A stretch of 61,792 bases of DNA, counting the filler, from Dirinaria sp. TL-2023a (lineage: Eukaryota): the NCBI GenBank assembly GCA_051941275.1. It is 3 parts of 3 records of this genome, joined end to end, with 100 filler letters (N's around TTAATTAATTAA, not from the genome) between each part and the next. Parts side by side here need not be neighbours in the genome. Positions count along the whole stretch, not along the records: positions 20,670 to 41,226 come from JAVEBF010000283.1; 2 more parts are not named here. One strand, written 5' to 3'. The translations under genes and the position numbers were made by a program. A model generated the notes under the pieces. That model saw only the letters and a list, made by a program, of their open reading frames with translations, was not told the origin of the DNA and did not search any database. This document shows, in pieces, positions 18,069-41,326 of this stretch (position 1 is the first letter of the stretch; each line of letters opens with the position of its first letter).

Positions 18069-20203
18069 ATGTCTTCCTCCGTTTTCTTTCGATTCAAATC
18101 CCAAAAGGAGCCTTCTCGTGTCACATTTGATGGTACAGGTATATCTGTCTTCGAACTGAAGAGGGAAATCATCACCGCCAACCGTCTTGGTGACGGTACG
18201 GATTTCGAGCTCGTCATTAGCGCCGAAGACACCAATGAAGGTAAATTGTAGACCTATTGATACTTATCAGCGGGTGAAGTATGACTGACTCTGCATAGAT
18301 TACAATGACGATACAACAATCATTCCTCGCTCATCAACTGTTATTGCCAAGAGACTCCCAGCTTCGAAACCAGGACGAGGTGGAGCGGCCAGATACATGT
18401 CTGGAAAGATGCCACAGACCAGCAAGAACTCGTACAGAGCAGAAGCTCCCACCTCAAAACCTGTAAACCCGGCTCGGCCGTCGAATGTCTCGCAACAAGC
18501 GTCAGATACAAATGGTGCGCAGACAGAAGAAGAAAAGATCGCCGCGATGTTCCAGAACAGCGCGAATCAATGGGCTGCACAGCAACAGGAAATGGCCAAG
18601 TAAGCCGCAGCTCTGCTACTTTAAATTTCCAGGTATACTAATTGTCTTAGTGCCACCCCAATTTATCGCGGTGCTCCACACGGCGGGAAGCACGCGAATA
18701 TTCCAGACCATCCTCCCCCACCTGGATATGTATGTTACCGGTGTGGAGAAAAGGGTATGTTGCTCGTAATTCCATCTGTGTTCGTATATTCACTAACACG
18801 CCACGGCGCTAGGTCACTTTATCCAAGCATGTCCTACCAACGACGATCCTAACTTCGACGGCCGCCCTAGGATCAAACGCACGACCGGTATTCCCCGCTC
18901 ATTTTTAAAGACGATTGAAAAGCCAAGTGCGATTGCCAATGATGGGACTGTGGATGATACAAAGCAGCCATCTGGAGTCATGGTCAATGCTGAAGGAGAA
19001 TGGGTGATAGCTGAGCCTGATCAGGCGTCTTGGGATCAATATCAAGCTAAGGCCAAGGTTTCGGCAGCAGCTCAGCAAGCTGCTGCTCGCGGTAGCAAGG
19101 AATTACAGGACAGAGGGCTTGAATGTCCAATTGACAAGCGCCTTTTCGTAGAGCCCACCAAGACCCCGTGCTGTCAGACGACATATTGCAATGAGTGCAT
19201 AACCAATGCTTTACTGGAGAGCGGCTTGACTTGTCCTTCATGTTCTACCGAAGATGTTGTACTTGATAACCTACTACCCGACGAAGAGACTGCTGCGAAG
19301 ATTCGTGACTATCAAGAGGAGAAGGGCTCACAGAAGGCGGAAGAGCTTTCTCAAACTCCGGCTATCAAATCAGAGCCACACTCTGACAAGGAACGACCAG
19401 CAAGCCCAAAGACAAAGTCTAAATCGCCTACTCAGGCCAAGCCGGAGATCAAGCGTGAGCGAAATAGTATGTCTCCGAAGTCTGCAAATCAGCCAAAAGA
19501 GAAGGCCCCTTCAAAGGAAACCACACCCCTGCTTGGAGCAGAAGCAAAAAGCAATAGTAAGAAGCGACCTGCTGAAGATGAGCTCAAGTCCGACCGGACA
19601 CCACCGGCACCGTCTGCTACGAGCATGGTAAAGCAATCTTCTGCCAACGGCGCCAGCTCCAAAGGAACCCAGAAGCCGGCTAACACTCCCACTATGTCAC
19701 ACAACAACCAAACACCTTTCAGCAATGGAAACTATATGATGCCTCAAATGATGACTGGCATGCCGTTTCCCAACATGAACGGTATGAACGGCTTCATGGG
19801 GATACCTCAGATGAACACTGGTCTGTTTGATCCAAGCATGATGGGCACCAATTCGTTCATGAACCCAGCCGGCAACTGGAACATGTGGTCCCAAGCACTT
19901 CCCGCACAGAACATGGGGATGACAGGCGCCGGGTTCCAAAACGGGATGTACGCGACCGCGGGCTACAATCCTCAGAACATGCAGATGCCGATGGGGAACG
20001 GTTATAATAACGGGATGATGATGAACAACACGAGCAGCATGGGCGGTGGTGGATACGGTAAAGGCTCATTCCCCAACCAACAGCGCAATCACCTCCACGG
20101 ATCGAATGACGAGGACAGCGCCTACTTCCGACGACCGGTGAACCCACATCGGCATCAGGCTCGGCGGAACGTCAATCGACCAACCGACTACCGCGAGATA
20201 TAG
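18069..20203 (+). CDS. MPE1: Cleavage/polyadenylation factor Mpe1 (DWNN domain, zinc knuckle, RING-like)
   Basis: MSSSVFFRFKSQK DWNN start, CYRCGEKGHFIQACPTN, RIKRTTGIPRSFL, CPIDK..TPCC..YCNECI..CPSC; 4 exons. Confidence 0.93.
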
Positions 20204-20569: not shown

Positions 20570-20669
20570 NNNNNNNNNNNNNNNNNNNNNNNNNNNNNNN
20601 NNNNNNNNNNNNNTTAATTAATTAANNNNNNNNNNNNNNNNNNNNNNNNNNNNNNNNNNNNNNNNNNNN
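20570..20669. other. Artificial contig spacer (44 N + TTAATTAATTAA + 44 N)
   Basis: All-frame stop linker flanked by fixed-length N runs; an identical spacer occurs at 41227. Confidence 0.97.
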
Positions 20670-21509
20670 GCTTCATGGGGCCTGGCTCTGGATCTCTGCT
20701 TGCGCCGCGTCGTGCGAAAGTATACCAGCGCCGCGAGGGTCACAATGAGCAATACCCCCAGCGCGACACCGACTCCGATACCGATCTTGGCCCCTTGATC
20801 CAGGGTTCCAGAATGTGCGGTCGCGGACGCGGTGACGGTGACGTTGGGCACCGTTGTTGGCGTAGTTGCTGCGGTTTGGCTCGTGGTAGTCGGCGGCAAG
20901 GCACTACTTGCCGTTCCATGCTCCTTATTCTCGGAATTCCTGGGAACGCATTTTTTAGATAGTGGCTCCCTCCATAATCAAACAAATACACCGAGACTGC
21001 GGTGAAGAAGGGCGACCTTACTGAAAAGTGCTCACCAGCTCGAAGCGGATCTTCTGCGCCACCGTCACCCCCACAGACCCCGGCACAGGCGATAAACGGA
21101 CCGCGGAGCTGAACCCATCTTTACTCGCATTGACGGCGCCGAAGTAGATCTGATCGTACTTGTCAAAGTTATTCGTCTGCGCAATCTTGGTCGCTGTCGA
21201 TGCTCCCGGGGCGGTTTTTGTCGTGTAGTTCCCAACGACCCTGACGAATCCTCGCTGGTCGCACGTGTCGTCCTGGATGCATCCCGGCGTGTACAATGTC
21301 ACCGAGTAGTTCCCGTCCGGGCTGATCTGAGATGTGTCGAAGGTCACGGATATGTCTCCTCCGCTGTTGTTGGCGATCAGGTAAACGCCGTCTTCTTGGG
21401 AACTGGTGTGGGGTTTCCAGGTGCCTGAGGTGGTTGCGTTGGCGGCGTAGAAGTATTGTGCCTGGGCCAAGGCTGCGTAAGATGCTATGATAAGGGAAAG
21501 AGAGATCAT
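20670..21509 (-). CDS. Type-I membrane protein with one Rax2 third-domain-like ectodomain; 3' end lost in the gap
   Basis: Signal peptide MISLSLIIASYAALAQA; YSVTLYTPGCIQDDTCDQRG..QTNNFDKYDQIYFG; intron ~21021-20941; S/T linker; TM AKIGIGVGVALGVLLIVTLAALVYF; basic tail. Confidence 0.8.
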
Positions 21510-23163
21510 TGTGTGTGTAACCCAAGAAAATAAAAAAAAAAAAAGAAATTGGAGCGTTCAGAGTATGAATGGGAGCGACTTGAAAGACGTCCTGCCTTCG
21601 CTTTACTCGCAAAAACTGTGGCAAACCCAAACACCCACCAATTTGGGCCAAAAAAGGCTTTTTGACGTCTTCCGGGGTCGTAAAATGATAGTGGTTGCAC
21701 GCCTGTCGAGAACCCACCTCACCTCAAGCGAATCCTTCACAAAGGATCACTGATCATTATGATCGCAATAAAGTAGGCCCAGGGGCCCAAGGTCACCGAG
21801 TCCGAGACTTCCAGCGAAAGAAAGCCATAAGGCTAGGGAGGCATGCTCCTCCTAAATACCATACTTCCACAATCAGTAGACGAGGCTGTACTGTACACAC
21901 ACACCAGGCTAAGCATCCCCCGCACTAGCCTCCCTGTCATTTAGTGCTTGTGGAGTGTGGAGGGATACCTTAAGATACAGTAGTCGTTTGTTGGTAGACC
22001 AGAAAACCGTCCAATCCTTGTCGAGCATTAACCGCTCCACGCACTAGAACTTAGATTACGACAAAAGGGGGTCAATTGTTTTACTCGAAGTATTTTAAAC
22101 GCCGAATCGAAATCCTTATAATAGCGTTCGAGAAAATTGATTTTTGTAATTGAGGCTTACTGCTGTCCGATTGTAATTTCGGCTTCAGATTTGGACAAGT
22201 CCAGATCTCGGCGCTGTTTCAAAAGAATGTGGGATGGTCTATACTTTACTAACCGCCATGCGATAGTACGAGCCATAGGACTGAAGTCTGCGGAGAGACT
22301 GTAGCTCGCAATTAGGGGTTTTTTGTTCTGGTGCAAGATCAGGAATAGTCAACGCGGGCCTTGTCTTGAAGTAAATGGCCTTTTGCGTGCCCGGACCCCT
22401 TCAATACTTCCAACGAGTCACAGACTGCTCTTTTGCGAAGCTATATACGGAAGTTTTGAAAAGATTGGCTGGAATTCAGGCTCTGAGCAATAGTGGTCTT
22501 CCAATATCATTTCGCACTCTCGCTGGCAGGCTCTTTCCAGATGGGTCTGGAGACAGCAGCAACTTCCCCTTTTTCTATGTGCGGAAAAGCTAATGCGGCC
22601 CCCCCTTTCCAGTTGGTGACATACTCAGCAAGGGCAAATGTATCTTTTGGCGGGATTTGCAGACATTTGCCAGCCTCCGGTTGAAGTTGTGCGCTCCATC
22701 TCAACATCAAACTCCAACTGTATCAGCGCAGGATCCAGCTACGTGGACTGCAGAGGTCCTCGTGCGGCAGGTGCAAGAATTGGCGAAGAAGTCTCGAAGG
22801 CGATGCGGCCTTTAGTATTGCTCGGTCCTTTCGTAATATAGCAGCAGCTATCAACTTAGGGATTTTGATAGGCCATAATGACTAGATTTGAATGTGTCTA
22901 GCACTCCCCCGACCATTGAGCCATTATTGGGTAATTTGAATCAAATAAGACCTTGATCTTGTAAGGTTGATCATGCTGATCTTGGAAATTCCTGTAGCCC
23001 TTTCCCACTCAAGAGATAATTGGCCGGTTGTTGTCAGATCAAGTACCCCCGACCCAAAAGCAACTCTTCCAAGGGTTGGTCGGATATTTGGAGGCTTCGT
23101 ACACTGAGTTTTCTGCAGGGATCTCGACCAGGCTACGTTCATATTGGCATCCCCATCAAGACC

Positions 23164-24274
23164 TCACGTATCATGTGTAAGGCTTTTCCCGTCCATTTCT
23201 TGCTTAAAGTGATCGCCCCCGATCTCATGAGCTTGGCCACCATTATCCATTTCATGAAGTCGAGTGTCAGGGTCCATCTCTCGAGCTTGAACGCTGGAGT
23301 GCTTCTCGTATCTCGCACTGTTCCCCTCTAATTCGGCGCGGGACATCTTTGAATGCCGGTCACCGTGTGGAGACGAAGAGTGTGATCTCTGGCGGGCCTT
23401 TCGACGCAAGAAGAATAGCAATGCAATGAGGAGAAGCACAAAAACCACAACGCCTACAGCAATACCAACATCCTCTCCAGGAGAAAGCTTGTTCGATGAG
23501 GAAGGTGGAGGAGTAACGGTGACTGTAGCAGCTACTGCAGAAGCTGTGGTGGGTTGATCGGCCTTCGCCGTGGACGCTGAGTTGGTTGGATTTATTGAGG
23601 TCGCAGAGGACAGGCTTGCACTCGAAGAAGTGGCCGTACGCGGTAAGGCTACGGAAAAAAATTGCTGTCAGTGTCAAGCATCCACATCGGTTTACAACTA
23701 TCTTACGGTCTTCGGCAAGGAGTAAGCCATCCAGACCTCCACCTGACCCATACCAGTCAGAGATATTCAGTCTCACACTATCCATGTTAATGACATTCAC
23801 AAAGAAAAAATCCTGATAAGACTTGTTCGAGGAGTGTGCGAGTGGGCAGAGTTCATCGCAGAATGCGTGTTTTCCGGTCTGCGGATCCGTGTAGGACAGA
23901 TTCGCCACTGCATTGGAAGGAAAGCCGGTGATGGCGAAAGCCTTTGTGCCTCGCCCATCTTGTCTAGTGTTTGACAAACGTAGCAGGGCAGGTGAGAAAG
24001 TTCCAGTCGAGACCCCAATCGCTTGCCAATACCCAGCTGTATCATCCGCTAAAAGCCAGGTCTTTCCAGCACCATCAACCCCGTCCGTACTCTTGAGGAT
24101 ATTCCGAGGGTCGTCAAATCCATCTAGGTTCGAACTGCCCTTGGCGGTTACGTTGGCAGAGCTGAGATCAACCGTCACATCTGAGGGAATGTTCGGGGCA
24201 ATATTATCCGTCATATCAACGCATCTGATCCAGACATACAATTTTTTTTGGCAAGGCGTCGTATCGATGACCAA
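23164..24274 (-). CDS. Type-I membrane protein with one Rax2 second-domain-like ectodomain; 5' end unresolved
   Basis: GFDDPRNI, DGAGKTWLLADDT.GYW, LRLSNTRQDGRGTK, CDELCPL, YQDFFFVN, ISDWYGSGGGLDG; intron ~23706-23648; S/T linker; TM VGIAVGVVVFVLLLIALLFFL; tail with repeated ELE/EMD motifs. Confidence 0.8.
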
Positions 24275-24730
24275 ATGACGAGAGGACCAAATTTCTCAAG
24301 ACTCCATTTCTGAATATGTCGAGAGAGATGAAAGTGGTACCACAGGCCATTTTTCAAACCGATTTCTTTCATGTACTCCGTAAGCGCCTGCTTTATCTGT
24401 AACCTAGCGGCGACCAATGGCTGTGCCCGCCGCCAAGGAAGTGCGGGCAGCATCACGATGTGCAGGTTCATTATTATGATGCCAAACATAGAACATAGAT
24501 TAGAAAATCTGGCTGTGACTTGTCAATATTAAGGAGTCGATCGCTCAAATGCATCGACGAAGAAGATTAAGATATTGAGATGATTTCGGCCCCCACTGAC
24601 TTCCGAATATGTCAATAATAATGAGAGCGAATAGATTGTCAATAGTCTCCGCAAATTTGAAGAAACATTTGAACCTAATTTGCGTGCATCTTGAAGATAC
24701 CCTGAATCCATCGTGTAACATTGATTCTCT

Positions 24731-25126
24731 TTGGCGCTCGCTAAAAAAAACACAAAAACACACACAGACCTTCCATAGAATTTGTATGTAGAACCTGTAA
24801 AAACGTCCCAATTGACCCACAATGCCGCGAATTATCGATATTGCACTTCGTAGCATCTTTTTTGAAGCCCCAATTCGGCATTCGAATTTCTTGATCCTAA
24901 GAGATTCTCCTCGTCGTCGCTATGCCTTTCAGAAAGCAGACTGTTGCTCAGAAGATCGCCAGCATTAGGAAACTCGATATACTGACGATTTGAGACTTAA
25001 GAATGATGCTACGAAGCGCATTATCGATAATTCGCGGCGTTGTCAATCAAATGAGTTGTTTTTACAGGTTCTACACACAAATTCCATGGAAGGTCTGTGA
25101 GATTTTTTGTGTTTTTCCGATGCCAA
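24731..25126. repeat. Long imperfect inverted repeat (~165-bp arms, ~60-bp spacer)
   Basis: 24731-24898 aligns to the reverse complement of 24961-25126, with shared blocks CACAGACCTTCCAT, GTAGAACCTGTAAAAAC, GCCGCGAATTATCGATA and CTTCGTAGCATC. Confidence 0.9.
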
Positions 25127-25659: not shown

Positions 25660-26861
25660 ATGGCAAGATTCGGACATGCGACAAAGGGTGCAGAGATTGT
25701 TGAAGCTTTCAAAGACAATCTGAAAGGGAAATCCAGTAAGCTTCTATTGGTCCTGACTGGGATATTCATGGTTCATAAACGCTTTAGTCCTCATAACCGG
25801 TCCAAGTGATGGGGGCTTAGGTGCCGAAACGGCAGTGGCTATTGCTGCTAAATCTCCGTCTCAGATCATTCTCGCTGGTCGCTCCCTCGAAAAGATCCAG
25901 CCCGTCATCGAACGAATAAACACCGCAAACCCGGAAGTCGAGACAGATTTCATACCTCTTGACCTAAGTAGCCAGCACTCGGTACGGGAAGCCGCCGACA
26001 AAATTAATGAGAGCGTGGACAAGCTCGACATAGTGATCAACAATGCCGCCATTATGGCTTGCCCGTTTGCAAAGACTGTAGATGGTGTCGAGAGCCAGTT
26101 TGGGACAAACTACCTCGGCCACTTCTTGCTTACGAATTTGATCATGCCGCAGATTCTGGCTGCAGGACCAGGTTCGAGAATCGTCAATGTGTCTAGTTCT
26201 GCACACCGCATGTCTGACATTCGACTTAAAGATTTGAATTTTGAGGTGAGGTCGTCATACGCCGCGATGGTTTGCAGGTTGACGTAGACTAGGATGGAGC
26301 GACGTATCATGCATTCCAAGCGTACGGATCAGCTAAAACAGCAATCATATTGTTTTCCATCTCTTTGGCAGACCAACTGAAGAATAGGGGCATAGTCTCT
26401 GTTTCACTGCATCCTGGCTGTTAGTACTCTCCCCTCTCAAAGTTAGTAGAAAGACTTGTGGCAGTCGGCTAAACTCATTCATAGCTATTAAAACCCATCT
26501 ACAAGCCCATATGACACCAGAGAAAGGGCAAGAAGCTGCGGAAATGATCACAGCAAACATCGGTCGTGAGTACCTCGTTCGAGAATGAAGTGTTCTTCTG
26601 GAGTGCGTAGAAGAAATCGAAGCTGACGTAGTAGTTCTCAAAGGCCATTTCCCCATACCTGAGCCCAAAACTCTTGAACAAGGATGTGCCACAACTCTTG
26701 TAGGAGCATTAGATCCTGCAGTGTCCTCTGGTTCCTACTTAGAAGACTGCATGCTTGCAGCACCGGAAGCTTACGCGGTGGACAAAGTCAAGGCTCAACA
26801 GCTCTGGAGCTTAAGCGAGGATCTGGTGAAGCAACGTTTTCAATGGTATCTTGCTCTTTGA
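25660..26861 (+). CDS. Short-chain dehydrogenase/reductase (retinol-DH/WWOX-like)
   Basis: ITGPSDGGLG, INNAAIM, QFGTNYLGHFLLT, VNVSSSAH, YGSAK (YxxxK), LHPG, KTLEQGCAT, AQQLWSLSE; 5 exons. Confidence 0.9.
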
Positions 26862-28239: not shown

Positions 28240-29559
28240 CTATAAACTATTCATATTCCGAAAAGCCTTGTAGGCAGCTCCATCTTTCTCAAACATCTTC
28301 TTCAGATCGCGCACAAGTAATTCGGGACATTCATGGGCGTAGAAATGTCCGCCACGATCATTCCTCGCCTCATACACTACGTTCCCCAAAGTTCGGCCCC
28401 AAGTGTTCGGCACAACATAGATATCTCGGGGACTGTACGTCAGGCCAATGGGCACGTGGGGCTCGTACTCCCGCATCGCATCGTAAGTGCAGGCTGCCTT
28501 GCCATCATCACCCACGGGAGAGGTATGCTGCACCTCGTAGTAGATCCTGTGAGCCGCACCCGGCCCGGCGCGGCTGAAGTAGTAGATGCTGACCCAGGTC
28601 AAGATCTCGTCGTCGGTCCAGGGATAGCTGTCGGTCCAGTCGCGCAGTTTCTCGTAGATCCAGGCCAGCAGAGCCACGGGGGAGTCGTGCAGGGCGTATG
28701 CCAATGTTTGCGGTTTGGTCGATTGCTCGAGATTGTATCCTTCAATAAACCATTTCCCATCAGCTTCTCTCTCGCAGCGACTTCAATAAGCCATCTCACG
28801 CAGTATTTAATAATAATAATTTTTTTTTTTTAAAAAAATGGGCTTACCCCTTCCCTCATCCTCGAACCACTGCGTCCGCTCCAACCCGGCCTTGTCCTCT
28901 CCCTCATACACCTTCCTCTTCTCCGCGCTCGGCGCGTTCGCGCACACCATATTGAAATGACTTGCTCTGCAACTCCCCGGGTAGAGCCGGCCCATGGCTC
29001 TCGTGATCCAGAATCCCCAGTCCCCGGCCTGCGTCACATACCGCTCATACCCCAGCTTCAGCATCAACTTGTGGCACGTCTCCGCATACTGGGCCAGTCC
29101 AAACCCTCGCTTCGAGACGCCCTGGCTAAAGCCATAATTTGGCAAGGAGGGCGCTACGACATGGAACTTTGGTTCATCGTCTGAGCTGCTCGTGCTGGAG
29201 AGGAGCGGGAGAATCTTCAACACTTCCATATACGATCCTGGCCAGCCGTGTACGAAGAGCAGCGGGATTGCATCTTTGCTCGGAGAGCGCTGGTGCACGA
29301 AATGGATATCCAAGGCTTCAAACCCATCCACGGAGATGTCGGTGTGGAACTGTGGATACCGGTTCAATGAGCGCTCCGCCGCCGCCCAATCCCACTCTTG
29401 CCACGCTTTTGTCAGGCGCTGGATTTCGGACAGGGGTATTCCGAGATCCCAGCCTGAGTTGGAGAGTTCGTCTGGGAAATCGGCGAGGGAGAGCTTTTGC
29501 TTGAGTCTGGCGACATGGGATGGTGGGGTGGAGATCTGGAATGGTTGGGGAGAAGTCAT
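28240..29559 (-). CDS. Microsomal-type epoxide hydrolase (alpha/beta hydrolase)
   Basis: IHFVH, HGWPGS, PSLPNYGFS, nucleophile QAGDWG, DSPVALLAWIYEK, GGHFYAHECP; one intron ~28847-28740. Confidence 0.93.
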
Positions 29560-30230
29560 TTTTTACCTACTTCTACTTTACTAGGTAGTTTCAGGATACC
29601 TTATCATTCGATTGGTCCAGAAATCCCATCCACACTTGCGCGATTTGATAAGGAGAGGGGAAGAAGATGGTGAAATGGCATAAGTAAGCTCTAAGAGTGA
29701 TGAATGAGAGGTGACGATGGCCTCACGATAATACTTAAGTACAGTAAGGTCATACCTTATCCACACTCCACGATCCTGGTCCCAGACTGCGTCAATGGCG
29801 GCAATACCTTAAGGTACCCTTATCAATATCCTTGTCTGGCGGGGTAAAGGAAGCCTTTTCTGTTTCTACAGTCAAATTGCAGTCACTGAATGAGTCACAG
29901 ATGAACGCTTTGACGATGTGCCTGATTTGGTCACGGCCCGGACGAATCCCCGGATTACTAAGCATGCGTTCACAGTGCGCAATCGGAGTCGGGACTCGGC
30001 GGAGTAAAAACCCCAAAAACCCCACCAAAAATTACAGTACCTTAAGGTAGCCCTATCAAAACCCCGATCTAGCATGGGTGACCATCCTCCTGCACTTCTA
30101 CCTTCTCTTCTCTACATAAAGTAGATAAGGAGCATCTGTAATAACCCATATAAGAGGTGGAAAGCTTGAGTTGTCCGATTTTTTCCTTTCTTTCTTTTCC
30201 AAGCTGAGTCTTGAATGACGGAAACAAAAT

Positions 30231-32194
30231 ATGGCTGCACTTTTAGATCGATCACGCTGGAGCCAATGGCTCAGGACCGCCCGCCATCCCCCCAAATATC
30301 TCACTGCTTCCATCTTCGTCTCTTTGGGCGGTCTTCTGAACGGGTAGGTTTCCTGATACCCTGTGTGATAGTGATGCGGTTACAACAATCAAACTCCATG
30401 CTCCTTACGCTACCGGTTTCTGACTTTTGAAAATTTCAAGGCTCGACACCAGCACCATCGGCCCAGTGATCGTGATGCCGTCTTTTAAGGAAGGCTTTGG
30501 TAATCTGTCGTCTTCAATGGAAGGCTTTGTCGTTTCTTCACTTCTCATTCCAGCTACCATCACCGCATTGTTTGCCGGCGCCGTGTCCGATAGCCTAGGT
30601 CGCACCCGGGCTCTGGCAATTGGTGCCTTTCTCTTTGCCGTTGGAGCTGCGTTCGAAGCCGGGGCTGTTCATCTGGCTATGCTGATCCTGGGACGATGCA
30701 TCGTTGGTATTGGTGAAGGTCTTTTTCTCAGCGCCATGATTGTGTAAGTTTCCGAGATTCTCCTAGGGTTGAGCTATGCTATAACGCCACTCAGGTATGT
30801 CTGTGAGATCGCGCCGCCCAAGCATCGGGGTCCCCTGGTGACCACTATTCAGCTCTTCATTACAATGGGTCTGTGTCTCGGCTTCTTTACGACTTATGGC
30901 ACAGTTGCGATACCGTCCTCGTTGTCTTGGCGCTTGCCCCTGGCACTGCATTCTGGTATCGCGTTCGTATTGATGATAGCTTCGACCTTCTACTTGCCCG
31001 AGTCTCCACGATGGCTGTCCTACAAAGGTCGCAAGCAAGAAGCCAGTAAAGCCTGGGACATCTTGGGCGTCTCCGGAGCAGAGCGAGAGAAAGACCTACA
31101 GCTCAATCCGGCAGGCGCAACGCCTGCAGGTGAGCCTGTCGAGGCTGTAGTCTCTTCACACCCTTCAGTCCCTAAAAAGACATTACGGAGCAGAATGCGG
31201 AGGAATTATGAAGATATTGCAGCAATTTTTAAGAAAGATGTTCGAAAACCGACACTCTTAGGGATCTTCTTGATGTCAATGCAGCAGCTCAGCGGTATTG
31301 ACGGTGTCATCTATGTCCGTACTTGATATGATCTACGAAGTTTCCATATTTCGAGATGTCCTTCCAAAGACAACCACTAACATTCAACATAGTATGCACC
31401 GCTGCTTTTCCAGCAAGCCGGTCTCAGCTCGTCCGAAGCTAGCTTCCTCGCTTCGGGGGTTTCGGCAATTTGCATCTTTGTCTTTACAATTTTGGCCGTG
31501 ATTTTCGTGGATCGCTGGGGTCGTCGACCTTCAACCATCTATGGCGGACTTATACTCTCCGTGTGTATGGCAGTCATGGGGATCTTGTACGCCAGCAAAA
31601 ATGTCCATCCAACAAGTGGCATAGGCCGTTGGATCGTGATCCTGATGATCTATATTTTTGCTATTGTGTATTCCATGAGTAAGTGAAAACTACTACTGGC
31701 GGTGGGAAGTTCTAAGCTGATGGCTGTGACAGCCTGGGCAATTGGAGTAAAGCTACTCGCTTCAGAGATTCAGCCCGTGGCGACCCGGGCTACGGCACAA
31801 AGTATAGGCCAAAGCGCTAATTGCGTAAGTTTGACTACAATATTATAATATCGATGTCGCTGACTCCTCGATTCAGATTTCCAACTTCTTCGTGGCCTTT
31901 ATTACACCCGTTTTGCTCTCTAGCTCCTCGTCAGCTTTCTATTTCCTTTTTGGAGGCGCAGTCATGATTACAGTCGGAGTCAGCATAATGTATATGCCTG
32001 AAACCAAAGGCCGAGACTTAGAAACCATCGGTGAAGCGTTTGCGACGCACAGTGCAAGCGAAATGCCACTGGTCGTCGGATTCAAGCGTTTAGTTAGTTG
32101 CTTTGCGAAAATGGCCGGGATCGGCAATGAAGCTCGAGGGTCCGAATCCGGGTCGAATGAGCAACATATTGCTTTAGAGACCTTGGCATCATAG
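30231..32194 (+). CDS. MFS sugar porter
   Basis: LGGLLNG/LDT, SDSLGR, EIAPPKHRG, PESPRWL, QQLSGIDGV, VDRWGRR, PETKG; multi-exon. Confidence 0.92.
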
Positions 32195-32286: not shown

Positions 32287-33036
32287 TTATTCTTTCGAGA
32301 CCTCCATCAAACTAAAATGGGGTTTTTCAACCAACCTATGCCAGGAGTCCTCGCTGTTGTCAGGCAATACCGCTGATCTCCAGATCACTTTACCATTCAT
32401 GCCACCTACTCTGCCCGCTGTCTCATAGACACTCTTCCTCAAATGATAAGAATCGAATTCGATATTTTTTGGCCCCGCAACAATGATAACACGCACTGCA
32501 GCCCCATCCTCGACCTCACCAGTCAATCGGCTCGCTACGCCGCCGTATTGCTCAGGATCGATCTCTGCGAGCTTCTCAGTCCACTGAAGCGGCTCGTTAG
32601 TAGGGGGCGGCGTGATGCCCACGAACCGACCGCCGTTCGTCAGATTCATGGCTATGGTTCGAAACATGTCCCCCATCTCTACCCCATTAGGTGCATAGCT
32701 CAGCAGCCAGACGGCAAGGACCAGATCGAACGGTCCTCCCTCGAAGGTTCTCGGCTTCGAACAATCATGCACGTGAAAGCTGATCTGATCTGAAGTATAC
32801 TTGACTCTTGCAACATCGATCATTACTGGAGATATATCTACCCCCACAACCTTCTCAGCTCCCATTTCGAGCATTCGGTTTGAGTAATGCCCGCTTCCGC
32901 AGGCAAGATCAAGCACTTTGGCACCTTTGACGTATGGTGACACCGAAGTCTCCACATTGTACTGAGTGAGTAGAGCGTTAGGTAGCTTCTGGTATGAATC
33001 GTAGGAAGCGCCGATACTATCGTATTGGGTTGACAT
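32287..33036 (-). CDS. Class I SAM-dependent small-molecule methyltransferase (ToxA-like), intronless
   Basis: VLDLACGSG, VVGVDISPVMI, FDLVLAVWLLSYA, GGRFVG; 249 aa. Confidence 0.88.
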   Translation of the reverse strand: MSTQYDSIGASYDSYQKLPNALLTQYNVETSVSPYVKGAKVLDLACGSGHYSNRMLEMGAEKVVGVDISPVMIDVARVKYTSDQISFHVHDCSKPRTFEGGPFDLVLAVWLLSYAPNGVEMGDMFRTIAMNLTNGGRFVGITPPPTNEPLQWTEKLAEIDPEQYGGVASRLTGEVEDGAAVRVIIVAGPKNIEFDSYHLRKSVYETAGRVGGMNGKVIWRSAVLPDNSEDSWHRLVEKPHFSLMEVSKE

Positions 33037-34088
33037 GATCTCTTAATGTGATAAAATCAGCTCCCCAGTCTCGAGAAAAGATTAGACTGACCTTAGATGA
33101 CTCTTTTGGTCTTGATTTTGGTTCATGATGTATACAGGTGAAATCTTCAATGAGGGGTAATTAACGTCACAGTGCAGCTTACGGTTATATGTCTCTTTTA
33201 ATCATTGGCTATATGGAAAAAAATTTGTCCGAGATCTTCGGAGTACAGCAATCATGAAGCTAGCTGATCACTGACTCTGTCTATAAGGAATAAATCTCAT
33301 TCTTACCCTCTGGGCCCCTTGAACTTGGCTTCGAAACCGGACAAGAGTCGGGGTTGAATCGCCTGCGAGAACGTATTCCAAAGGCCCATCTCATATCAGC
33401 TTACGATAGATGTTCGTAAGCCGAATTTTGGGAAGTATGTAAAAGACGTCCTATTCAAAAACCGGTAATTGCTTGACGGACATTCTGGGCCATCTGTGAT
33501 CCGCGAGCACGAGGACTTTCGATCAAGGAATTTTTAGTCGACCAATATGATCCAGAGTCCTCCATTGAACTGTCTATCGCACATGATACCTGCGAGCTAT
33601 TGAACAATGAATTGTCTAACGCTCTAAACCGAGGCCTCCTACTAAAACGAAGAAGGATTTTGAGGTGATTCCAAAAAGACATCGCTTGGCCACAAAATTG
33701 CGTATGGAATGATTAAGCACAGTATGGACTACGAAGAGCAGAGAAGCCAAGAAACCGCTGTCAACCATCGTCTCGCACTGAGCTTTAGTACGACTTCACG
33801 CCTGCTTTGTGGTCTTCGTTGTGCTCTTTTATCGGCTCGTTCCGTGTGATCTTTACTCATCATTGGTGCGCTTGTATCTTCTAGCTATCCCGTCCTATTC
33901 TTTGCTTAGCGAGTTATGGCACAGTACTAGATCAACTAGCTTCACTGATCCTCTGATCAAAAGCTACATATATCCTCATATCTCCTCTTATCTGTTCTTT
34001 CCAAAGTGTGTCAAATTGCCTGCTTTTCAACCAGAATTGAGAATCATAAGAGTTATATACGTTTGTTGTATCTGCTGAGGTGGTCGTG

Positions 34089-36297: not shown

Positions 36298-38021
36298 ATG
36301 GCTCGAGTCTCTGATCAGTCTCGCGAGCCGCTGTTGCGAACCCCACCCTCAAGCAGCACACCTCCGAACCCCACAAGCCAGAGTCGAAAGCGCAAAAGAG
36401 ATCAGAAAGCTTCGGCATTAGAGTCCAGCATTTCGAAACGAACGCGGCAGTCCACTCGGGCAGCACTTGAACTAACCCAGCCAAATCCCCAGAGTCCTGC
36501 CAAAGCTCACACTGACGGAGTTCATAAATCTCGCCAATCCGACCGTTTCCCTTTGAGCCCATCTCGACCTTCAGATCACGAAGAACCATCTTTACGAGAT
36601 TCCAAACCTCCCCGTTTTAAAGCACAACCTTCCCCTCCAAAGCCTGACCATCCGAACACACACACAGCCTCGAACCTGCCTACCAGCTCCTCGAAGCTAG
36701 AGACACAACCTACAGAGGCTGACGGCAAGACTGGCTGTGAAGACGTTAGCAAAAAGACCGAAGCATACATCGCAGACGGCAGAAGCGAGGGCAGCGGGCA
36801 GCGGGGTCATCCAATCTCTCATCAAGTCCACCAGAGCAAGAGTCCAATCACTTCGATCGGTCATTGGGTATTGGAAGGCGATTGGCCCAGAGAACACTCT
36901 CTAGAAGAGTACCCAATGAACCCACCACTGCCTAAGAAGCGCTCGCATTCGACGCTCAGGGATCAAATCTCGTCGGAAGCATCCGATGTCTCCTCGAAGG
37001 AAAAAACGTACAAAGTCCGCAGTTTCTAGTGCTCTTGAAAGCTGCTGGGATCTACATGGAAAACTATTCAATACAGCCGACGGAGTCATGTAAGGGCATG
37101 TGTACACAGCTGCTTCGAGCCGAGCAGAAGCTTCCAGAGGAATCATTGTTCAGCAACGAGGTTTTTCCTTCGGTGGTCGAGGAACTTCAATTGGAGAACG
37201 AGGCAATGGTTTTCGATGACATTACGCCGCTCATAGCTCAACGGGTTGAGCGTTTATGCGCTTGGGGTGCTGAACATCTGAAGTATTTGCATGGCCACAT
37301 AAACATGGCTTGGGGCCGGTCAATACCATTAGTCGCTACACCTCCACAGCCAGATTATTGTGTGGGCCTAGGCCTGAACGCATTTACTCAAGTGCAATAT
37401 CAAACTTTGAGAGCTCTTATAGGTGGAAGGGAACGAAATCCGCTCATGGCTTCGTTCTTGATGTTCTTTCCCTTTTTCACATGCATGGTCAAGGCTACTG
37501 GGGTAGGCCTCGGGGTAGCGAATAGACAGAATATATCGAGTGGTAGTGTTGCTGTCAATGCCCTCGTCACGCTTTATCGGGCAGCGGGTCGTGAGAAGGA
37601 ACTCGACAAGAAAATCCTGGCATTCTCAATTTCCCACGACGACAAAACCTTCGAGATATACGGTCACTACGCCTCATTGGAAACGCCAGAACCACGCTTC
37701 TATCAATATTCCATCAGGAGGGCGTACTTCGCAGAACAGGAGGATAGGTGGACGGCTTACAGATTTACTCGCAACGTGTACGACGTGTTCGCACCCATAC
37801 ATCTAAAAAGAGTGTGCGATGTTCTAGATTCGCTGCCGGAAAGCGCTTCGATCTGGAATCAAGGGTTTGCCTATCAACCTACGGGTAGCGAGAAAAGTAG
37901 GACTGAGTCTATCCAAGCAAGTGAGGCTCAAGTTCCCGCACCAGTCACACCGCCTTCGCCCGCTATAGAGGACGAGACCTTTCAAAAGCCCAAAAGTGCA
38001 CGTAGAAAGGGGAAGAAGTAA
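36298..38021 (+). pseudogene. DUF7924-like fungal protein (PD-(D/E)XK-like core) with a frameshift near 37013
   Basis: Disordered N-terminal ORF switches frame at TACAAAGTCCG into the ORF containing PQPDYCVG, FPFFTCMVK, NRQN, ILAFSISHD, IYGHY. One extra A would give YKSPQFLVLLK. Confidence 0.7.
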
Positions 38022-41226: not shown

Positions 41227-41326
41227 NNNNNNNNNNNNNNNNNNNNNNNNNNNNNNNNNNNNNNNNNNNNTTAATTAATTAANNNNNNNNNNNNNNNNNN
41301 NNNNNNNNNNNNNNNNNNNNNNNNNN
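41227..41326. other. Artificial contig spacer (44 N + TTAATTAATTAA + 44 N)
   Basis: Same structure as 20570-20669. Confidence 0.97.

Follow-up and report, generated by a model that had tools for sequence, protein, structure and literature searches.

Two tandem genes of a lichen-forming Dirinaria, each carrying a single Rax2 domain on a membrane stalk, and their probable origin by gene fission at an intron

The window analysed here is a stretch of 61,792 nucleotides from the lichen-forming ascomycete Dirinaria sp. TL-2023a, and consists of three contigs separated by linkers of the form N44-TTAATTAATTAA-N44. Two intact, neighbouring genes, designated gene A (upstream) and gene B (downstream), lie in tandem on the minus strand of the second contig. 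The frames of both are open and their splice sites canonical (a slash marks the exon-intron junctions below), and the positions of the two transmembrane (TM) helices were counted by hand. Exon 1 of gene A (23707..24214) supplies the start codon and the Rax2_2 (D2) head, that is, residues 1-169 plus one base. It is followed by a 58-nt phase 1 intron (23649..23706; GTAAGA...CTGAC...TAG) and by exon 2 (23164..23648), which encodes a serine/threonine-rich (S/T) stalk (41% S/T), a TM helix (V230-L250; 23407-23469), the sequence RRKARQR, an acidic tail of 80 residues and the stop codon. The 330-aa product is identical to a protein deposited at NCBI for Dirinaria sp. TL-2023a (P0121).

Gene B starts with an ATG at 21509. 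Its first exon (21022..21509) encodes a signal peptide, recognized as a hydrophobic N-terminus (residues 1-17; 21459-21509), and the Rax2_3 (D3) head. A phase 2 intron of 82 nt follows (20940..21021; CA/GTAAGG...CCCAG/G), with whose position the ends of the ORF-called orthologues P0381, P0385 and P0387 coincide. Exon 2 is partial in this assembly (20670..20939), and includes an S/T stalk (39% S/T), a TM helix (I215-F237; 20717-20785) and the sequence RTTRRKQRSRAR; the exon is cut by the contig end. Because the second contig begins at position 20670, directly after the artificial joint at 20570..20669, the tail of gene B is cut by the assembly and not by biology. The remainder of the tail is found on another contig as P0394, whose first 39 residues match window positions 20785-20669 at 100%, which brings the protein to ~323 aa in all.

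Both products have basic residues C-terminal of the TM helix and one Cys pair in the head, and there are four N-x-S/T sequons in gene A and six in gene B. The 1.65-kb spacer between the genes (21510..23163) contains no ORF longer than 79 aa, no Pfam match on its nine ORFs of 62-79 aa and no Rfam family. No signal peptide is present at the N-terminus of gene A. A candidate for a missed signal-peptide exon was considered, namely a 103-aa ORF at 24211-24522 that could be joined in frame through a GTACAT...CAG intron of ~150 nt; it was rejected because the splice signals are weak, the ORF has no Pfam match, and five orthologues have the same start as gene A.

The domain identity of the two heads is clear. 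Exon 1 of gene A matches Rax2_2 (PF20842) with E 1.3e-44 and a score of 152.3 bits (cut-off 27), covering profile positions 5-146 of 146 (residues 13-161; 23732-24178), and the deposited P0121 matches the same profile with E 6.6e-44. Exon 1 of gene B matches Rax2_3 (PF20843) with E 3.1e-35 and 122.2 bits over profile positions 18-161 of 161 (about 21033-21449). These scores are far beyond chance. In an alignment of 50 D2 sequences, none of the 4 invariant or 23 nearly invariant columns is altered in gene A, and the same holds for gene B in an alignment of 29 D3 sequences, which has 6 invariant and 21 nearly invariant columns. The Rax2 motifs quoted in the initial annotation are all found on the minus strand, in gene A (KTWLLADDTAGYW, QDGRGTK, FCDELCPL, YQDFFFVN and WYGSGGGL) and in gene B (YTPGCIQDDTCDQRG and QTNNFDKYDQIY). 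That annotation had described tandem genes, each with one Rax2 module and an intron-separated S/T stalk, TM helix and tail, with a separate signal peptide for the downstream gene and the ancestral order of D2 then D3 on one strand; the gene models and profile matches bear out each of these points. There are no other parts of Rax2 in the window, as tblastn with P0024 and P0002 matched only D2 and D3, and the C-terminal beta-propeller (PF12768) is absent by Pfam from P0121 and from P0001.

Neither head has relatives in the PDB by sequence, and their folds were modelled (pLDDT 92.3 for gene A, 84.3 for gene B). The predicted structure of the gene A head is a discoidin/CBM32-like fold: the model matches F5/8-type-C, CBM32 and discoidin chains at Z 14.9-13.3, the best being 3nng_B (Z 14.9, rmsd 2.9, 138 aligned) and 4a41 (Z 14.6), and Foldseek returned 176 matches at E<=0.001. 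The modelled gene B head is a CBM35/CBM6-like jelly roll that superimposes best on the module at the C-terminus of xanthan lyase (6f2p, residues 905-1040; Z 15.3, rmsd 2.2, 128 aligned), with CBM35 and CBM36 chains coming next (Z 10-11.6). Similarity of fold is not in itself evidence of function. The nearest sequence family of D3 is Golvesin_C, with Pfam scores of 15.8 and 21.9 bits that are below the cut-off of 31.6. In the Protein Atlas, the gene B head also gave Golvesin_C clusters, as weak leads below 0.9, and the stalk, TM and tail of gene A gave clusters of Ascomycota proteins, some with Mid2, CFEM or chitin-binding heads, again with leads <0.9.

The boundary between the two genes can be compared with the exon structure of RAX2 itself. 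In 17 of 26 full-length Rax2 loci, an intron separates D2 from D3, with the junction G/GT directly after ...GGGL.G.ELFQ[DN]. The 5′ junction of gene A is C/GTAAGA after ...GGGLDGLLLAED, and in the alignment its position and phase are those of the D2/D3 intron. Many ORF-called proteins of ~390 aa likewise terminate just past D2. On the other side of the break, the reading frame of gene B begins at the start of Rax2 exon 2, and its signal peptide aligns without gaps to the exon 2 start, DI[FY].YAV..LNEP.CA; the match to the Rax2_3 profile starts at position 18 in gene B and at position 1 in full-length P0024. The stalk, TM and tail parts of the two genes are weakly related to each other (BLASTP, 120 residues aligned, E 3e-05). 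The introns that precede the two stalk exons are in phase 1 in gene A and phase 2 in gene B, and this difference in phase means that the two stalk exons are no simple copy of one junction.

Single-domain relatives of the two genes differ in their distribution. The gene pair, which was sought in relatives, is also present in cf. Caloplaca (Q9219_001405 and Q9219_001406, both on one contig of 174,431 b) and Letrouitia (Q9214_003098 and Q9214_003097, both on one contig of 5,482 b), so that the genes are adjacent in all three of the named genomes that have both, as judged in the relatives from locus tags and a shared contig; these genomes span two orders of Lecanoromycetes. D2-only proteins are found in three classes, including Sordariomycetes and Dothideomycetes, where examples are PFICI_11082 of Pestalotiopsis fici (P0238) and EV356DRAFT_527823 of Viridothelium virens (P0272), together with Trypethelium. 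Gene A has the features of this family, with one N-terminal PF20842 head, an S/T stalk, one TM helix, an acidic tail and no second Rax2 domain. D3-only proteins are represented by eight sequences, of which six are close to gene B; a hydrophobic N-terminus is present in 9 of 10 sequences, and a TM helix in P0001, P0380, P0392 and gene B. The D3 searches, whose sensitivity was limited, brought up no D3-only partner from P. fici or from Viridothelium/Trypethelium, and the D2-only gene may therefore predate the pair or be independent of it. A metagenome scan with the D2-only alignment returned 26 loci, all of them full-length Rax2 and none single-domain. The single-domain architecture of gene A is not peculiar to this locus: it recurs in the D2-only proteins of Sordariomycetes and Dothideomycetes, to which UniProt already gives the automatic name 'Rax2-like second domain-containing protein'. 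A literature search by domain and family names yielded no description of D2-only proteins in fungi, and no name for the D3-only membrane proteins was found in the databases or literature searched.

The domain phylogeny called for at the outset covers both D2 and D3. All eight D3-only rows form one clade (100/98), and the gene A clade of eight rows is supported at 100/100. Of the 17 D2-only rows, 16 fall in one clade (79/82), with the P. fici row placed elsewhere; in a careful D2 tree it groups with Sordariomycete Rax2 (89/83), which would mean a second origin of D2-only proteins. A tree in which all 17 rows are constrained together is not rejected (p-AU 0.264). Both the D2-only and the D3-only clades lie inside Pezizomycotina Rax2, and they attach at a similar depth that is poorly resolved.

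A break between the genes at a Rax2 intron is as a split or exon-shuffling origin predicts, and the intron position of gene A together with the frame start of gene B supports fission of a partial Rax2 duplicate. In the scenario that we propose, a partial RAX2 duplicate would have been cut at the conserved phase 1 intron between D2 and D3. Gene A would have retained the D2 end of exon 1 with the 5′ splice site of that intron, which would now splice to a stalk/TM/tail exon. The frame of gene B would start at the old start of exon 2; a signal peptide encoded by its first 17 codons would have replaced the first 17 profile positions of D3, and its last part would be another stalk/TM/tail exon, related to that of gene A. 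We consider the single-domain architecture and the fission origin together to be very probable. The idea that a Rax2 copy was split or shuffled onto Mid2-like exons is supported by the break at a Rax2 intron and by the weak relatedness of the stalk/TM/tail parts; for Mid2 it comes down to a resemblance, because PF04478 scores 22.2 bits on exon 2 of gene B, below its cut-off of 23.2, and Mid2 has no match on gene A at E<=0.01.

There are other possible histories. The two genes could have been recruited independently, with gene A drawn from the older and wider D2-only family, gene B arising separately, and the D2-then-D3 adjacency being secondary, through tandem placement or chance. The occurrence of D2-only proteins in three classes, compared with so few and such closely related D3-only sequences, is in keeping with this, as are the missing D3-only partners of P. 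fici and Viridothelium and the different phases of the stalk-exon introns. We nevertheless consider independent recruitment unlikely, since the pair is adjacent wherever both genes occur in the named genomes, the end of gene A and the start of gene B exactly flank one Rax2 intron, the two single-domain clades attach at similar, if poorly resolved, depth inside Pezizomycotina Rax2, and the stalk/TM/tail parts of the two genes are related. Far less credible still is that the genes are relics or annotation artefacts, in the sense of decaying, functionless fragments of a dead RAX2 copy. The truncation of gene B in this assembly and the length of the 1.65-kb spacer might give that impression, but the frames are open and the splice sites canonical, orthologues at 54-78% identity retain the core residues, and each head is joined to a complete stalk, TM helix and tail, which a decaying fragment would not be expected to acquire.

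With regard to function, the products of genes A and B are predicted single-pass membrane glycoproteins whose likely role is that of stalked, glycan-binding proteins of the cell surface. Each head would bind a glycan of the cell wall or extracellular matrix, an O-glycosylated S/T stalk would keep the head off the membrane, and the tail would report to, or anchor on, the cortex. The resulting proteins would resemble wall sensors of the Wsc/Mid2 type, and their heads would derive from the part of the Rax2 landmark that faces the wall. As a whole, the best explanation of the locus, and in our view a reasonably probable one, is that of two fission-derived membrane glycoproteins, each with one Rax2 beta-sandwich head, acting as glycan-binding surface proteins. 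A function as sensor or anchor is a more tentative suggestion. Wsc/Mid2-type sensors relay wall stress by way of the tail to Rho1, and no known signalling motif was recognised in either tail of the pair.

The main difficulty for an extracellular head concerns gene A. None of the 19 D2-only proteins examined has a signal peptide. To be exported, the ~225-residue N-terminal part of gene A would for this reason depend on signal-anchor (type III) insertion, an uncommon route for a folded domain that large. It could be, then, that D2 stays in the cytosol and that the protein is tail-anchored-like or N-in, with some other role. No D2-only protein of the 19 has even a hydrophobic N-terminus, the segment from the upstream in-frame stop to the ATG of gene A contains a single AG with no CTRAY branch-point motif close by, and the first Cys of the pair is missing from the orthologue P0125. 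Such a topology nonetheless seems very unlikely to us, as RRKARQR lies C-terminal of the TM helix and acidic residues lie on its N side. A lumenal or extracellular position of the head is also in keeping with the S/T-rich stalk, with the nearly invariant Cys pair and with an N-x-S/T sequon that 12 of 12 aligned D2-only proteins retain. The same question bears on a more ambitious scheme, in which the two heads, D2 from A and D3 from B, come together again in the wall space, rebuild the D2-D3 unit of Rax2 and form a heterodimer with two tails. The split Rax2 module would then be one two-chain receptor that jointly reads a glycan of the fungal growth-site wall or of the photobiont matrix and signals through two different tails, and the folded domain of ~170 residues in gene A would be carried to the surface through signal-anchor insertion. 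Conservation of adjacency and order across two orders, the position of D2 and D3 as neighbours in the parent Rax2, and the joint persistence of both families in pair-bearing taxa would suit such a receptor. D2-only genes, however, seem to be present without a D3-only partner in other classes, and only gene B has a signal peptide, so that delivery of both heads to the same compartment is uncertain. A predicted complex of the two heads, run without controls or custom alignments, scored 0.00, which speaks neither for nor against binding. We rate the two-chain receptor, including the route to the surface that it assumes for gene A, as distinctly improbable; if true, it would document an intron-site gene fission that created a new heteromeric receptor in lichen-forming fungi.

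The reading that we prefer, with two fission-derived surface glycoproteins, has several implications. Gene fission can rarely be traced to the base, and in this case the two flanks of one ancestral intron can still be seen in living genes, with the first strand of D3 apparently turned into a signal peptide in gene B. The pair points to D2 and D3, whose predicted folds are both CBM-like, as candidate wall- or glycan-facing parts of Rax2. The persistence of the Rax2 landmark at old growth sites is poorly understood, and the small single-domain proteins would therefore be simple reagents for module-binding tests. Because the known range of the pair is lichen-forming Lecanoromycetes, the proteins are candidates for a surface component of the symbiosis, in which the recognition molecules are poorly known. 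The D2-only family, with 19 members, presents a cell-biological puzzle, in that its proteins have no signal peptide and yet their other features all suggest an extracellular head.

Finally, we compare the two genes with known systems. Rax2 is a landmark in budding yeast, and the proteins of S. cerevisiae (Rax2p) and S. pombe (rax2) combine Rax2_2, Rax2_3 and the Rax2 C-terminal beta-propeller in about 1,200 aa. The heads of genes A and B are homologues of the second and third Rax2 domains, respectively; they show 44-46% identity to the lecanoromycete Rax2 P0024, and the intron position and domain order are those of Rax2. Unlike Rax2, PF20842 is found only in gene A and PF20843 only in gene B, in separate genes 1.65 kb apart, the N-terminal ~220 residues and the PF12768 propeller are missing, and each gene has its own S/T stalk, TM helix and long acidic tail. 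The extracellular part of Rax2 is described as large and seemingly heavily glycosylated, and Rax1/2 as keeping a memory of sites of growth (PMC13741952). The D2-only proteins P0238 and P0272 resemble gene A in having an N-terminal Rax2_2 head that no signal peptide precedes, an S/T stalk, a single TM helix with ..S.GA.AGI.. at its start and E-L/E-M motifs in the tail; in the head they are 38-47% identical to it. The order of head, S/T-rich stalk, single TM helix and cytoplasmic tail is also that of the Wsc1/Mid2-type sensors of ascomycetes, for which a nanospring model exists. These cell-wall integrity sensors are described as mechanosensors that span the plasma membrane (PMC9024836, PMC7915640). 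Both genes have the stalk, TM helix and tail of this layout and gene B, but not gene A, its signal peptide; neither has a WSC domain (no Pfam match), their heads being CBM-like beta-sandwiches according to the models. The predicted folds of D2 and D3 match the CBM32/discoidin (F5/8 type C) and CBM35/CBM6 modules of bacterial and fungal glycan-active enzymes, with a sequence identity of 8-20% and no Pfam membership of the heads in those families; whereas CBMs are carried on enzymes, the heads of genes A and B are borne on a membrane stalk.

Gene A, the upstream gene, and gene B, the downstream one, lie on the minus strand, right where the middle contig (20670-41226) begins. Gene A runs from its ATG at 24214 to a stop at 23164, is interrupted by a 58-nt phase 1 intron (23706-23649), and encodes a 330-aa product identical to P0121, an NCBI hypothetical protein of the Dirinaria sp. 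TL-2023a MAG. Gene B starts at 21509 and contains an 82-nt phase 2 intron (21021-20940); its tail is cut at 20670 by the contig end. The tail continues in P0394, an incomplete protein from that MAG encoded on a separate 2,096-b contig. Residues 1-39 of P0394 exactly match window positions 20785-20669; because P0394 supplies the missing tail, the whole protein comes to about 323 aa. The window joints (20570-20669 and 41227-41326) are N44-TTAATTAATTAA-N44 linkers between the three contigs, and sequence outside 20570-41326 has no known linkage to the gene pair.

The initial annotation described two tandem genes, each with a single Rax2 module, and this is what a Pfam profile check returned: the second Rax2 domain (Rax2_2, here D2) on gene A at E 1.3e-44, the third (Rax2_3, D3) on gene B at E 3.1e-35, and no further family above threshold on either. 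A tblastn comparison of two full-length Rax2 proteins with the whole window likewise found D2 and D3 only; neither the N-terminal region nor the PF12768 propeller was matched. Behind each head, and separated by the intron as had been claimed, come an S/T-rich stalk (41% S/T in gene A, 39% in gene B), a TM helix (V230-L250 and I215-F237, respectively), a basic cluster after the helix, and an acidic tail with repeated E-L/E-M motifs. The stalk/TM/tail parts of the Caloplaca A and B orthologues align with each other over 120 residues (E 3e-05).

Gene B has its own signal peptide, MISLSLIIASYAALAQA, as first described; gene A has none. This difference extends to the relatives: a hydrophobic N-terminus was found in 0 of 19 proteins with D2 as their only Rax2 domain (maximum 9-residue hydropathy 0.73-2.07), and nine of ten D3-only sequences score 2.42-3.28, the sole exception, P0392, beginning inside the domain. 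The gene A ATG is preceded, 27 codons upstream, by an in-frame stop, and the interval between the two, read by eye, holds a single AG with no branch-point motif nearby. A sequon at N105, a Cys pair, the stalk and the charges around the TM helix nevertheless point to a gene A head outside the cell. Signal-anchor insertion and an unseen 5′ exon are both possible explanations.

Upstream of gene A, about 530 nt from its start, is an inverted repeat (24746-24874 / 24988-25116) with 129-nt arms that are 83% complementary and 113 nt apart, possibly left by a foldback or MITE-like element. Farther upstream on the same contig, Pfam identifies ORFs for a short-chain dehydrogenase (25757-26287, +), an epoxide hydrolase (28807-29562, -), a sugar transporter (30748-32194, +), a methyltransferase (32287-33042, -), a cytochrome P450 (34502-35803, +) and a DUF7924 protein (36936-38021, +), which could form a small metabolic gene cluster. 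At the end of the first contig, the ORF list has a 468-aa open frame (18797-20203, +) with a Cys-rich RING-like stretch (CPIDKRLF...CCQTTYCNECI...CPSC) followed by a long N/M/G/Q-rich C-terminal part.

The pair is also present in relatives. The gene B head, searched against proteins of 288-2000 aa, gave 138 matches at E<=1e-3; among the best 120, which were listed, 119 are Rax2 proteins with PF12768, and one, the 318-aa P0001 of cf. Caloplaca sp. 3 (Q9219_001406), has a single domain. For the gene A head (308-2000 aa; 155 matches at E<=1e-3, best 120 listed), the top five matches are single-domain proteins of 311-338 aa, including Q9219_001405, on the same 174,431-b Caloplaca contig as Q9219_001406, and Q9214_003098 of Letrouitia sp. 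1. A D3-only profile search of proteins of 74-557 aa yielded 17 matches, among them Q9214_003097, which shares a 5,482-b contig with Q9214_003098. Since the Caloplaca and Letrouitia locus tags are consecutive, the pair is adjacent in all three named genomes having both genes, strand and spacing being seen only in Dirinaria. These genomes belong to the Caliciales and Teloschistales.

When the gene A head was compared with 1.84 billion representatives, 233 proteins matched at E<=1e-3, and the best 150, those listed, include 11 D2-only proteins, of which nine have a stalk and TM (P0125, P0238, P0249, P0250, P0266, P0268, P0272, P0288 and P0298) and two are ORF-called first exons (P0227 and P0228). 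Named members are PFICI_11082 of Pestalotiopsis fici (Sordariomycetes) and proteins of the Dothideomycetes Viridothelium virens and Trypethelium eluteriae. In UniProt these already bear the automatic name 'Rax2-like second domain-containing protein', and thus gene A is a member of an existing, undescribed family. Fewer proteins are D3-only: those close to gene B are P0001, P0380, P0381, P0385 and P0387; P0390, with its own signal peptide, and P0392, with stalk and TM, are distant. For P. fici and Viridothelium, two D3 searches brought up no D3-only protein, which is weak evidence because both picked candidates by shared words and listed or scored part of them.

An intron bears on how the genes arose. 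A metagenome search with a D2 alignment recovered 26 loci, all full-length Rax2 genes. In 17 of these, which reduce to six distinct sequences because many records are near-identical, an intron (G|GT...) follows the first base of the codon after ...GGGL.G.ELFQ[DN]; eight are continuous at this site, and a search of the remaining one did not locate the motif. Fungi are thus polymorphic for the presence of this phase 1 intron between D2 and D3, a feature that could help to date when the split genes arose. In gene A, ...GGGLDGLLLAED is followed by C|GTAAGA, at the position and in the phase of the Rax2 intron, and its ORF-called orthologues P0122, P0125 and P0227 switch to unrelated sequence at this point, as expected if the ORFs read into the intron. 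In gene B, the 17-residue signal peptide aligns without gaps to residues 1-16 of Rax2 exon 2 (DI[FY].YAV..LNEP.CA), and what lies downstream is collinear with that exon. The Rax2_3 profile matches gene B from position 18 and the full-length Rax2 P0024 from position 1, in agreement with this alignment. An alternative pairs QYFYAAN of gene B with IYVYAVN, at the cost of a 14-residue deletion. Under either alignment, the gene B frame begins no more than a residue or two from the old exon boundary.

From the intron position, the exon 2 start and the related stalk/TM/tail parts, we infer that a single partial Rax2 duplicate was split. A stalk/TM/tail exon would have come to lie in its D2/D3 intron, and a second, related exon would have been added after D3, in either order. 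An origin by splitting or exon shuffling, as initially proposed, is well supported and is sharpened by the intron evidence.

Trees combined all D2-only or all D3-only rows with 75 full-length Rax2 proteins chosen from 284 eligible ones (every named protein, 25 random and 25 distant; the other 209 were omitted). The eight D3-only rows form a single clade (100/98) within a Pezizomycotina clade (98/99) and adjoin Eurotiomycete Rax2 weakly (53/71). The gene A clade (eight rows, 100/100) joins eight further D2-only rows at 79/82. P0238, the P. fici protein, groups with Sordariomycete Rax2 (89/83), apart from the other 16 D2-only rows, which hints that the D2-only form arose a second time in Sordariomycetes. 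Forcing all 17 rows into one group lowers the log-likelihood by 6.84 units, a difference that does not reject the grouping (p-AU 0.264); the bootstrap of the D2 tree is not fully settled. Given the clade supports and this test, a single origin for each family is likely.

The suggestion of a wholly unknown kind of system stands in part. New here are the conserved pair, the family with D3 alone and the trace of fission at intron level; the D2-only form is already catalogued, if unstudied, and fungal stalked surface proteins have this layout. A literature search by family names found no paper on these single-domain Rax2 proteins.

With regard to function, the D2 model (pLDDT 92.3) matched F5/8-type-C, CBM32 and discoidin chains at Z 14.9-13.3, and a Foldseek search returned 176 structures at E<=0.001 (best 7jnb, 3.7e-07). 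The D3 model (pLDDT 84.3) matched the C-terminal module of xanthan lyase 6f2p (Z 15.3, rmsd 2.2, 128 aligned), followed by CBM35, CBM36 and CBM6 chains at Z ~10-11.6. The gene B head is 20% identical to residues 905-1040 of this Paenibacillus enzyme, the next chain scoring Z 11.6, and the third Rax2 domain has a sub-threshold match to Golvesin_C (Pfam); together these could be a lead to the D3 ligand. Judging from the fold matches, both predicted heads would be of a kind that usually binds carbohydrate, the fold alone showing no function.

Finally, the genes can be compared with Wsc/Mid2-type wall sensors. Genes A and B have no WSC domain, and the initial label of Mid2-like was not borne out, Mid2 falling below threshold, so that they stand outside that group. 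The likeness lies in a head on a glycosylated stalk, one TM helix and a tail. On the basis of this layout and the predicted glycan-binding type of the heads, we propose that genes A and B may encode stalked, glycan-binding surface anchors or, with low confidence for the signalling part, sensors comparable to the Wsc/Mid2 type.
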